64,000 nt of DNA. Source: Candidatus Latescibacterota bacterium (lineage in GTDB: Bacteria > Latescibacterota > UBA2968 > UBA8231). The stretch is taken from positions 1,696,001 through 1,760,000 of the forward strand of contig CBDCSU010000006.1 of assembly GCA_965221775.1 (NCBI GenBank), given 5' to 3'. The notes below the pieces were generated by a model. That model saw nothing but the letters and a program-made list of their open reading frames with translations. It made no database searches and was not told the DNA's origin. Position numbers and translations under genes: made by a program. The first letter of the stretch is position 1; every line of letters starts with the position of its first letter. Of the stretch, positions 2,668 to 5,769 are shown piece by piece.

Positions 2668-5600
2668 ATGGCGACCGCACCGTCCAACCCGTGGCACAAG
2701 GCGTCCTTCGACGAATTCCTGCACCGCCGCCTTCCCGAGTTGCTGGCCGCACGGCTGGGGGTGACCACCTGCCGCGCCGCAGGGGCCGGCGGTCACGCCT
2801 GCCGGATCGTCCTCGGCGGGCGTTCCGCCGAGGGGGACTTCGAGGTCGAGTACGACGGGCTGCCCGCACCGGACGAGGAGGGCGTCTTCCGGTTGCCGGG
2901 TTCCCCGGACCCGGACGGCGGGCCCCGCCTGCCGCCCCCGAGGACGTACCACGGGGGGGAGCGCGAGCCCTCGGGCGAAGTCGAGCTGGTCGTGCTGCCC
3001 GTGGCCGACCGGGACGACCTGGCCGAGGCCCGAATCGACTGTCTCGGCGACCGGCTCTCGACCTTCATCGAGTCCCGCCTCGGGGAGGTCCCCGGCCACA
3101 CCCCCCTCGACGGGTCCCTCCTGCGGACCCTGGCGCCTCTGAAGGACTGGTTCCACTCCTTCCTGGCCTCCTGCGGCGAGCGGCTCGACGACACCAACTG
3201 GCTGTCCCGGTCCGCGCACCTGCGCCGGATCCTGGTCCCGGACCGCCAGGAGGTATTCACCCCCGGCCACTTCGGCCGCACCTGCCCCTTCGAGACCCCG
3301 GAGGGACCGAACATCGGCCGCGTCCTGACGATCTCCCGGGGCGCGGAGATCCGCGGCCGCCGGCTGGTGATCGTCGACGCGAAGCCCGCGGAGGGACTGG
3401 GCATGTCCAGCGCATGCATCCCCTTCCTCGAGCACGACGACGGCAACCGCGTGCTCATGGGCGCCAACATGATGCGCCAGTGGCTGGCGCCCGCCGAGAG
3501 AGAGCCGGCCTTCGTGCGGACCGGCCTCGAGCCGCGGGCGCCGGACTTCTGGTGCGGCCGGAACCTGCTCACGGCTCTGCTCTCGTGGGACGGGGACGCC
3601 TTCGAGGACGCCGTGCTGCTCAGCCGGTCCGGCGCCCGCAAGCTCGCCTGCCCGGAGCCCCTCGAGCCCGGCGACAAGCTCAGCAACCGCCACGGGATCA
3701 AGGGCGTCGTGTCCCGGGTGGCGCCCGACGAGGAGATGCCGCGGCTGCCCGACGGCACCCCCGTGGAGCTGGTCTTCAGCTTCTCCGGCATTCCGTCCCG
3801 CTGGGTCATGGGGCTGGTCCGGGAGGCCGCCCTCGGACACGCGGCTCACCTGCGGGGGGAGCCCGCCGTCGTGCCCCCCTTCAAGGCGCCTTCCGACGAG
3901 CAGTTGCGGAACCTGCTTCAGGGCAGCGGCCTGCGCGCCGACGGCATGACCACGCTGACCCTCGACGGCACTCCCCTGCGGCGGCCGGCCACGGCCGGAT
4001 CGGTCTACTGGGGCTGCACCGTGCATCGCGCTCGCCCGAAACTGAGGGCCGCCGTCCACCCCGACGACCGGGGCCAGCGCCTGGGGGAGATGGAGGTGCG
4101 GGCCCTGGCCGAGGCCGGGGCGCCCGCGGTGATCCGGGAGCTGACCAACACCTGCTCCAGCCAACGCGGCGACGCCGGTTCCCTGGCCGAGAGGGCCGCC
4201 GCCGGACCGGTCGAGCCGGCGAGCACCCCCTCTCCCGCCTTCTCGGCCCTGGCGGCGGGTCTGGCGCAGGCCGGAATCCGCGCCGAGGCCGGCCCCCGGG
4301 GGGTCGCCTTCCGGTTGGAACCACCCCGGGGGCCGACGCTGTCCCTGGCCGCCGGCGTGCCCCACCCCTGGTTGCCGGGGAAGACCCTGTCCGAGGTCTG
4401 CGCAGCCGAGGGGGCCGCCGGATATCCCGAGGTCCTCGCCGCCAACGGCAGGCTCGCCCGCCTGCCGAAGGACGGGGCTCCCGAGCCCCTGGCAGCCGCG
4501 GCTCTCGACGATCTGGCCGCCGCTGTCTCGGACCTGTACGACGGACTGGCCGCCGCGCCGCGGCTGGGGCGGGATGGGAATGTCCTCTTCAGCGGCCGTG
4601 CGGTGATCGTCCCCGGGGGCGATCTGCCGGCCGACCGGCTCGGCCTCCCGGCGGAGATGGCCTGGAGCCTCTTCGGGCCGCTGGTGGCCCGCGCGCTGGG
4701 GGATCCCGAAGCGGTGGGGCAGCGCTCCACCGAGGCCGAGGCCGCCCTCGCCGCCGCCATGGAGGCCCACTGGGTCATCCTCGGCCACGCTCCATCGGTC
4801 AGTCCCACGGCGATGCTGGCCTTCCGGCCCCTGCCGATCCCGGGCCACGCCATCCGTCTCTGCCCCCTGGCCTGCGGCCTGTTGGACGCCGATTTCGACG
4901 GCGACCAGGCGGCCGTCTTCCTGCCTCTCACGGAGGCGGCTCAGCGCGAGACCCGCGAGCGGCTGTCCATCGCCGGCCACCTGGCCCGTGACCCCGGCCT
5001 CGTGGAGGACCTCTTCCCGCGCATGGACGCCCTCTTCGGGCTGGCCTGCCTCAGCCGCTCGGCAGCGGGCCGGAAGGCGATTACGCAAGCCGCCGGCCGG
5101 GAGCCGAACCTCGAGGGCGGCCTCCTCACCCGCGAGGCGGCGGCGATGCTGCTGCGGGGTGTCCTGACCGACGAGGGGGAGCAGGCGGCCCTGGGCGTGG
5201 CCGCGGAACTGATGCGGTTGGGGTTCGAGACGGCCCGCGCGGAGGGAGGCTCCGTGGGGCCCTTCATCGGCAGCACCCTCGAACTGCCCGTCCCCCCGGG
5301 GGAGGACGACGCGCCGCAGTGGCAGGCCTGCACGGAGGAAGCCCGGGCGATCGTCGCCGGCTTCCGCGACTACGACGACCACGACCTGGGGGCCGCCGCC
5401 CTGCTGTGCCACAGCGGCGCCCGGGCCACGGTCCATCAGCTCACCACCCTGGTGGGGCCGGGCGGACTCGTTCGCGACGTCGAGGGCCGGGTCCTCGGAG
5501 TCGCCCGCTCCTGGCGGGAGGGACTGACCGCGCGGGAGGTGCTGGCCCGGGTCGTCGGCGCCCGCCGCGGCCTGTTCCGCGTCCTGACGGAGTTCGGATC

Positions 5601-5769
5601 CCTCGGCCGGGAGCGGTCCGGGTCCGGGCCGGAGGGGTTCGGCGTCCTGGCCCGGGCCCGCCGGGTCGAGCGCCCGGGCCTCGTCTTCGCGAGGGCTGCC
5701 CTCAGGGGCGAGGTCGATCCCCTGGAAGACGAGCAATCGCGGCTGCTGGTCGGACTGTCCAGGCCGTGA
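2668..5769 (+). CDS. Miniature single-chain RNA polymerase beta/beta' fusion homologue (1033 aa)
   Basis: Collinear RpoB motifs ([61 protein letters not shown]) then RpoC motifs ([28 protein letters not shown]) in one open frame. Confidence 0.93.
   Translation: [1033 protein letters not shown]

Follow-up and report, generated by a model that had tools for sequence, protein, structure and literature searches.

Bacterial transcription of the cellular type has been taken to rest on an invariant five-subunit core of ~400 kDa. In the fusions of the Helicobacter and Wolbachia type, beta is followed by beta' in one polypeptide of ~2840-2890 aa (lengths of the profiles NF007172 and NF011417), and this fusion is the cell's only, essential enzyme. 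Here we describe a single chain with the same order of parts that is 1033 aa long and that coexists with split rpoB and rpoC genes. It is encoded on the forward strand at 2668-5769 of a 64-kb stretch of a Candidatus Latescibacterota genome (hereafter the window, meaning the whole stretch analysed; the assembly comprises 5.36 Mb in 6 contigs, and G+C is ~72% throughout), and it is the second gene of a cassette that begins with a sigma factor of the extracytoplasmic function (ECF) type. We call it the mini polymerase. Our analysis identifies a real, conserved and apparently undescribed sigma-linked mini RNA polymerase cassette, whose anatomy and pairing are solid and from which we infer its activity, docking and role.

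Fusions of about this size are in print. According to two papers (PMC2919709, PMC6211774), Orf6 of the yeast cytoplasmic linear plasmid pGKL2 (K2ORF6p, 982 aa) joins a beta-like to a beta'-like part; about half of the conserved regions are gone from it, and lid, rudder and rim helices are reported to be missing. As portrayed there, it shares with the mini polymerase a beta-to-beta' fusion of ~1000 aa and a short private promoter element of its own. It differs in residing on a eukaryotic plasmid together with a capping enzyme, a helicase and a separate small subunit (Orf7) that carries C-terminal beta' regions, in working with no sigma factor, and in an origin that its authors place among viral enzymes. 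Compared by description, the mini polymerase family is instead chromosomal, bacterial-type, sigma-linked and complete in one chain. This Rpb2::Rpb1 fusion of the yeast killer plasmid appears, by analogy, to be the nearest architectural counterpart. An earlier reading of this DNA made from the letters alone (the sequence-only reading) had known of no description of such an architecture; that holds for the bacterial sigma-linked form, which is apparently undescribed, and fails for the ~1000-aa fusion architecture itself, which has precedent in the yeast plasmids.

A second point of comparison is YonO of the Bacillus prophage SPbeta, characterized (PMC5467207) as a single chain of ~100 kDa with 'very distant homology' to the multisubunit polymerases. 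Both are single chains homologous to the multisubunit enzymes; however, YonO is prophage-encoded, whereas the mini family matches Pfam at E 6e-27, is absent from 50,697 phage records and is linked to a sigma factor. On the strength of these descriptions, the strong Pfam match and the absence from phages, it is plausible that the two are distinct. Our literature search, which did not extend to the text of Iyer & Aravind 2012 or to the supplements of PMC7826278, turned up no account of a mini beta-beta' enzyme linked to a sigma factor in bacteria. The main text of the latter, a reclassification of ECF sigma factors, contains none of the terms 'Rpb', 'beta subunit' and 'Gemmatimonadetes', and its supplementary tables of conserved neighbours may bear on the point.

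The mini polymerase and its anatomy

The mini polymerase gene starts with an ATG at 2668 and its stop codon ends at 5769. The sequence-only reading had seen here an intact 1033-aa ORF (open reading frame) carrying RpoB-like and then RpoC-like blocks; its coordinates proved exact, and every motif string that it listed is in the translation. Pfam, whose Rpb1 and Rpb2 models it had proposed as a check, finds, in order, RNA_pol_Rpb2_3 at residues 173-227 (E 9.5e-8), Rpb2_6 in two stretches (E 6.1e-27) and Rpb1_2 at residues 700-764 (E 8.9e-14), all above the Pfam gathering scores, together with Rpb2_7 at residues 469-497 (E 0.0031), which stays under its gathering score. The best NCBIfam matches are bacterial rpoB (TIGR02013, 163.5 bits vs a cut-off of 801.15) and rpoC (TIGR02386, 100.4 bits vs 963.5), so that the protein falls far below the equivalog level for both subunits; it also falls below the full-length fusion models NF007172 (145.2 bits vs 5372) and NF011417 (154.8 bits vs 4632). 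Among PHROGs, only polymerase-like families match. An AlphaFold2 model built from 26 sequences is confident (pLDDT 83.4, pTM 0.78), and when Foldseek compares it with the PDB, beta' and beta chains of bacteria rank first (E ~1e-20). A profile search of PDB sequences returned canonical subunits only (best E 2.4e-69) and no solved structure of any member of the mini polymerase family.

The same genome encodes canonical beta (1278 aa) and beta' (1365 aa) as separate chains, in an rpoB-rpoC locus on another contig (C4) that adjoins the genes for L7/L12 (rplL) and L10 (rplJ). The mini polymerase ORF is 39% of their 2643-aa sum, so the earlier estimate that about 60% is gone holds. No rpl or rps genes lie near the mini polymerase in the window, in keeping with the earlier placement outside any rpoBC locus. 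Since its best families are rpoB and rpoC, its catalytic residues are invariant, its evolution is under purifying selection and a canonical enzyme is encoded elsewhere, the sequence evidence supports the view that the mini polymerase is an accessory, stripped-down two-barrel enzyme derived from the bacterial beta/beta' pair and set apart from the rpoBC locus, as had been proposed.

We compared the protein with the genome's own beta and beta' by BLASTP and profiles, which gives approximate residue boundaries. Residues 1-170 appear to be a vestigial beta N-terminus. Residues 171-540 hold the beta fork, a Rif-cluster-like motif, the beta double-psi barrel and the beta C-terminus, with the flap deleted; within them, residues 201-228 correspond to beta 515-542 (fork loop 2, ETPEGPNIG), 236-291 to beta 614-669 (the FLEHDD.NR.LMG.NM.RQ block), 293-325 to beta 758-790, and 326-532 to beta 1038-1260 (barrel and C-terminus). 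No counterpart exists for canonical beta 790-1038, the flap. The motif directly before fork loop 2 looks like what we take to be the THKRR block of Rif cluster I in E. coli. A junction at residues 541-585 includes the 'HIW'-like motif VPHPW (564-568), which resembles the PV.HIW block at the beta' N-terminus of the genome's rpoC. The beta' part, residues 581-977, corresponds to beta' 261-771 and consists of the clamp helices (586-627), a shortened switch 2 and the beta' barrel with DFDGDQ (628-765), a reduced dock/funnel (766-905), and the F-loop and bridge helix (906-985); a short tail follows at 986-1033. A profile of the family aligns contiguously with canonical beta 1045-1271 (E 6.9e-46) and beta' 261-771 (E 5.5e-30). 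The bridge helix is supported twice, as hhalign continues through beta' 744-771 (GARKGL) and the AlphaFold2 model has a helix at 955-984, and the clamp helices retain their signature, N-x-RL ... APE ... L ... V ... D.

The mini polymerase is thus like the canonical core in its two double-psi barrels with the GDK..RHG.KG and (N)ADFDGDQ motifs, in fork loop 2, the FLEHDD.NR.LMG.NM.RQ block, the bridge helix, the F-loop and the clamp helices, and in that canonical subunits are the best sequence and fold matches of all; its partner is a normal-looking two-domain ECF sigma. It is unlike the canonical core in having a single chain of 1033 aa where the canonical core has two, totalling 2643 aa, in lying outside the ribosomal-protein operon as an accessory, patchily distributed gene, and in having no conserved alpha- or omega-like partner nearby. 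Profile and BLASTP comparison detected no recognizable beta lobes, flap, beta' zinc finger, lid, rudder, rim helices, trigger loop or jaw.

The residues expected to carry catalysis are retained throughout. In an alignment of 26 polymerases, hand-picked for spread out of 120 listed matches and 45-89% identical to the window's protein, G335, D336, K337, S339, R341, G343, K345 and G346 of the beta barrel (GDK-S-R-G-KG) are invariant in 26/26, as are D742, F743, D744, G745, D746 and Q747, the metal-binding DxDxD motif of the beta' barrel, and E212, G213 and N215. At residue 741 (4888-4890), directly ahead of DFDGDQ, the window's protein and 6 others of the 26 have Asp, 17 have the canonical Asn and 2 have Gln. 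The Asn of canonical enzymes makes contact with the ribose of the incoming nucleotide, and sugar selectivity might therefore differ between clades.

The two ends of the protein are less clear. The first 170 residues have a weak profile likeness to beta 43-223 (probability 23%, E 8.7e-4), with the motifs S-F-x-x-F-L and I-P-x-x-x-x-x-G-x-F agreeing with beta. The C-terminal 49 residues have a weak likeness to beta' region H in hhalign (E 0.16); by eye, both trigger helix 1 and region H were candidates for this tail, and hhalign strongly supports neither. We also observed a Pro/Gly-rich insert in the N-terminal domain (residues 80-103, 2905-2976) that only the closest relatives share (conservation 0.15, pLDDT <50), and in a relative derived from a metatranscriptome several small deletions fall in it (places 2901-2919).

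The sigma partner and the cassette promoter

The sequence-only reading had described the polymerase alone. Its account of the polymerase itself stands, and what it overlooked is that the gene is the second one of a conserved cassette, after an ECF sigma gene and a private promoter. Immediately upstream on the same strand, 2060-2665 encodes a sigma-70 family factor of 201 aa of the ECF type (Pfam Sigma70_r2, E 1.8e-14; Sigma70_r4_2, E 2.2e-12). Of the NCBIfam models, the ECF superfamily model TIGR02937 alone passes (89.9 bits vs 42.9), and no equivalog model does. The factor consists of sigma2, a long linker and sigma4. An alignment of 27 of 35 sigma sequences (leaving aside the truncated L006, the near-duplicates L009, L010, L018, L027, L035 and L036, and two relatives of L023, namely L032 and L039) shows the linker islands RR, QPL, P-x-W-x-x-D and P to be conserved. 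A conserved long linker is unusual among ECF factors. The sigma stop codon TAG (2663-2665) is followed by GC and then by the polymerase ATG at 2668, a gap of 2 nt, and the ribosome-binding site of the polymerase gene, GGGAGGAGG (2652-2660, forward strand, read directly), lies inside the end of the sigma gene, which suggests translational coupling.

This pairing is conserved to the point of being obligatory. We compared 38 related loci, these being the family members among the 80 best loci with one genome per species (the remaining 42 were canonical rpoB-rpoC); many of them are kin, and counts across loci are not independent events. By tblastn, an orthologue of the sigma factor (35-55% identity) lies upstream on the same strand in 36/38 loci, and the 2 loci with no match have no upstream DNA present. 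The sigma stop and polymerase start overlap or lie at most ~15 nt apart in most loci, with ~70-260 nt between them in some Poribacteria. In a survey of 168 genomes of the window's phylum for both genes, 65 had the polymerase and 63 the sigma subfamily; 62 had both, 3 the polymerase only, and 1 the sigma only, at a contig end. An all-against-all BLASTP of ORFs within +-6 kb of the 38 loci, which remote homologues below E 1e-8 would escape, found no third conserved gene; sigma and polymerase alone are conserved. In four loci from Latescibacterota and Poribacteria (L015, L018, L023 and L025), an unrelated gene on the same strand stands between the two. The intervening genes encode an ABC transporter ATPase/permease fusion, a TPR-like protein and an S9 peptidase-like protein, and would be natural cargo of the cassette promoter.

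The order of genes resembles that of operons for an ECF sigma and its anti-sigma, with an autoregulated ECF promoter, the sigma gene first and a translationally coupled partner second. Here, in contrast, the partner is polymerase-like with intact catalytic motifs, and the promoter seems confined to the cassette operon. The likeness raises the alternative that the mini protein is a decoy core, an anti-sigma-like partner that would sequester the sigma factor through its clamp helices and close a negative feedback, with catalysis secondary or vestigial. Such a role would fit the order and coupling of the genes, the retention of the clamp helices and the fact that no conventional anti-sigma gene is conserved nearby. 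We nevertheless consider it improbable: fork loop 2, the bridge helix and every catalytic motif of the two barrels vary little or not at all across at least 10 phyla, conservation peaks in the catalytic beta blocks (0.75-0.78) and not in the clamp helices (0.55), and a decoy of 1033 aa would have no need of catalytic motifs. Pfam also sees no anti-sigma domain in the mini polymerase, only polymerase domains.

The promoter upstream of the sigma gene has the geometry and elements of those used by canonical ECF holoenzymes (AAC ... CGT-like GTC). In the window, a -35-like TGAAC (2017-2021) overlaps the stop codon of the upstream gene, and a -10-like CGGTGTC (2036-2042) follows 14 nt downstream; the GGAGG ribosome-binding site of the sigma gene (2051-2055, read directly) comes next, all on the forward strand, and the leader is very short. 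Equivalent purine-rich blocks lie downstream of the -10 element at other loci. The motif TGAAC-N14-CGGTGTC is present upstream of the sigma gene at all 12 positions in 23/36 loci and at 11/12 in 9/36, its spacer is exactly 14 nt in 32/36, and in 34/36 it begins 37-76 nt ahead of the sigma start. It is also unique: the 5.36-Mb genome contains one exact copy, the cassette's own (0.53 expected), and 5/5 complete carrier genomes have the exact motif at the cassette, with 4 further exact copies overall vs 2 for a reversed-pattern control. We found no sigma-70-type promoter in 1800-6100.

At four one-mismatch sites with a plausible downstream gene, that gene encodes an ECF sigma in one case and a PhyH protein, an ABC-2 permease and a protein of unknown type in the others, which have no theme in common. 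The ECF sigma gene, of 204 aa and on the reverse strand of the window's own genome (L094, G000:C6:341249), is preceded by TGAAG-N14-CGGTGTC, one mismatch from the cassette promoter; this may reflect cross-talk or just a general likeness among ECF promoters.

At the other end of the unit, a hairpin with a T-run stands directly after the polymerase stop in many loci. In the window, a pattern scan found no terminator, and the hairpin downstream of the stop does not stand out from those of shuffled sequences (z 0.42). With its promoter, sigma gene, polymerase gene and often a terminator, the unit therefore forms a closed cassette. We also observed that strains from two other metagenome studies lack 29 nt directly after the polymerase stop, at 5772, in a region that contains a near-repeat of AGGCCGTG.

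Distribution, integrity and surroundings

A word-indexed search in which 8000 candidates were scored showed that the family is widespread and uniform in size: 117 of the best 120 matches are 1001-1092 aa long (44-98% identity) and the other 3 are shorter pieces, which bears out the same-length homologues that the sequence-only reading had asked about. An exhaustive search of 1.84 billion representatives gave 389 matches at E <= 1e-30; among the 150 listed, ~140 belong to the family, either whole or as fragments. Where relatives carry names, these are 'hypothetical protein' or lists of Pfam domains. The 38 loci, all from metagenome-assembled genomes, span Chloroflexota, Armatimonadota, Poribacteria, Planctomycetota, Latescibacterota, Myxococcota, Gemmatimonadota, Kiritimatiellota and Spirochaetota, and the phyla seen across the analysis are these nine plus Hydrogenedentes. 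Within the window's phylum, the polymerase occurs in 65/168 genomes, 19/52 high-quality ones and 4/9 other genomes of the genus. In a FastTree phylogeny of the 33 of 39 rows that are full-length members (ORFs <900 aa excluded), members group by phylum with 7 label changes where the minimum is 7, and the window stands beside Latescibacterota. This grouping fits an old family with mainly vertical descent and losses.

The genes are under purifying selection, with dN/dS of 0.11-0.21 in 11/11 orthologue pairs (chosen among close relatives; the pair L020/L022 is saturated), and none of the 65 polymerase matches of the phylum has an internal stop. Seven studies, for the most part on sponge or marine metagenomes, also have runs that contain the window's stretch. 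In one run, which may be the source, 1700-6000 lies in a single contig with zero differences; in two other studies, contigs run from the upstream gene through the sigma gene into the start of the polymerase (1700-2936 and 1700-2923), and another contig covers 3499-6000. These data bear on the possibility that the ORF is an assembly chimera or a decaying pseudogene, outcomes that the sequence-only reading had itself named as fatal to its proposal. What speaks for such an origin comes from elsewhere in the family: the L028 and L031 polymerases, two of the 38 loci, have internal stops or frame breaks, and the G171 and G146 sigma matches have an in-frame TGA, all in long-read metagenome assemblies, where the breaks could be assembly errors or real decay. 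For the window itself, the low dN/dS, the stop-free matches of the phylum, the bridging contigs of independent studies and the unchanged stretch in one run refute it, and we regard its probability as negligible.

A selfish origin might be expected of a compact cassette with its own promoter and often its own terminator, whose distribution is patchy (65/168 in the phylum, 4/9 in the genus) and whose flanking genes vary between lineages. The mini polymerase would then be the enzyme of a phage, plasmid or other selfish element, YonO-like or jumbo-phage-like, that resides in the chromosome by chance. Against this, no match covers at least 80% of the protein in 50,697 phage records (35 partial matches, canonical-type) or in 72,556 plasmid records (68 partial matches); the related loci were found to have neither an integrase nor a repeat nor any further neighbour in common; the PADLOC defence-system models match the cassette with 0 families at E <= 1; and the tree groups by phylum as expected of mainly vertical descent with losses. 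We therefore hold this origin to be very improbable.

Upstream of the cassette, 658-2019 on the forward strand encodes a PQQ_2/BamB-like beta-propeller with a signal-peptide-like N-terminus, and its stop codon TGA (2017-2019) is part of the -35-like TGAAC. Downstream and convergent to the polymerase, tandem SPFH/Band-7 genes (5855-6784 and 6786-7718, reverse strand) follow an NfeD-like gene (7722-8288, reverse strand); together, the SPFH and NfeD genes are an ordinary membrane-scaffold operon. These PQQ/BamB-like, SPFH and NfeD neighbours stand beside the cassette in 0/38 related loci. No phage genes were found in the flanks of the cassette, and a tRNA-Val (GAC) at 15393-15469 on the reverse strand is the sole tRNA and the sole Rfam match in the 64-kb window.

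Proposed mechanism and significance

Taken together, the evidence leads us to consider it somewhat more probable than not that the cassette encodes a single-chain mini RNA polymerase that depends on its sigma factor and is under positive autoregulation. In this model, which extrapolates from sequence, the first transcripts would be made by the host core RNA polymerase with the cassette's sigma factor, or by read-through. Region 2 of the sigma factor would then dock on the retained clamp helices of the mini enzyme to give a holoenzyme of ~135 kDa that initiates at the cassette's own promoter, and sigma and mini enzyme would amplify themselves in a positive loop. The mini enzyme would make RNA on DNA templates independently of the host core, and it would do so without the parts that many regulators and inhibitors of the host enzyme bind.

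Several points weigh against this model. In the canonical holoenzyme, the flap tip helix holds sigma region 4; with the flap deleted, how region 4 is positioned for -35 recognition on the mini enzyme is unexplained. The ordinary ECF geometry of the promoter suits the host core with the cassette's sigma equally well. One-mismatch promoter sites are not enriched in the window's own genome (26 found vs 21.9 expected), and no regulon beyond the cassette emerged from exact or one-mismatch scans of that genome; an enzyme that reads its own genes alone has no evident output, and other templates must therefore exist. On the side of catalysis, hhalign matches no trigger loop in the 49 residues after the bridge helix, so catalysis may be slow, and Asp replaces the usual Asn ahead of DFDGD in the window's clade. 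As to expression, contigs of a sponge metatranscriptome run cover the sigma gene and parts of the polymerase at ~92% identity; they give a weak hint, as one of them spans 1912-2987 and thus begins upstream of the promoter, and DNA carry-over is possible.

In an alternative reading, the sigma factor would act only as a switch, turning the operon on together with the host core. The mini enzyme would then need no sigma factor for its work on other substrates, such as single-stranded DNA, nicks, gaps or RNA templates, where it would be a primase-like or RNA-dependent polymerase. The missing beta lobes, jaw, flap and most of the clamp are the parts that grip the downstream duplex and close the cleft, the promoter has ordinary ECF geometry, and since it occurs once per genome, other templates must be located some other way. 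There is precedent for single-stranded templates among other reduced two-barrel enzymes, QDE-1 being one example (PMC9508822). However, the sigma subfamily is essentially never present without the polymerase (62 genomes have both, and the 1 with sigma alone has it at a contig end), the starts of the two genes are coupled, and the clamp helices, the main sigma-docking element of canonical enzymes, are kept though most of the clamp is gone. We rate this alternative as unlikely, though ahead of the decoy role discussed above.

If sigma-dependent transcription by the mini enzyme is correct, it would be the smallest sigma-dependent RNA polymerase of the cellular type known. Many binding sites of regulators, phage inhibitors and antibiotics are gone, and transcription by it may escape those controls. 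It is a tentative proposal, at slightly under even chances, that many poorly cultured phyla carry a second, autonomous two-protein transcription machine, composed of a ~113-kDa core and an ECF sigma, with one private promoter and blind to most factors and inhibitors of the host polymerase. Annotation pipelines currently call this widespread polymerase a 'hypothetical protein'. At 3.7 kb and with a 26-bp promoter of its own, the cassette could find practical use as a compact module for orthogonal expression, and the enzyme would allow the minimal catalytic and sigma-docking core of the bacterial polymerase to be defined by experiment. Such a minimized, sigma-dependent enzyme would reveal the parts that catalysis, promoter opening and sigma docking really require, the way in which initiation can proceed when flap, lid, rudder, zinc finger and trigger loop are absent, and the reason why a second polymerase is maintained in ~39% of the species of one phylum.

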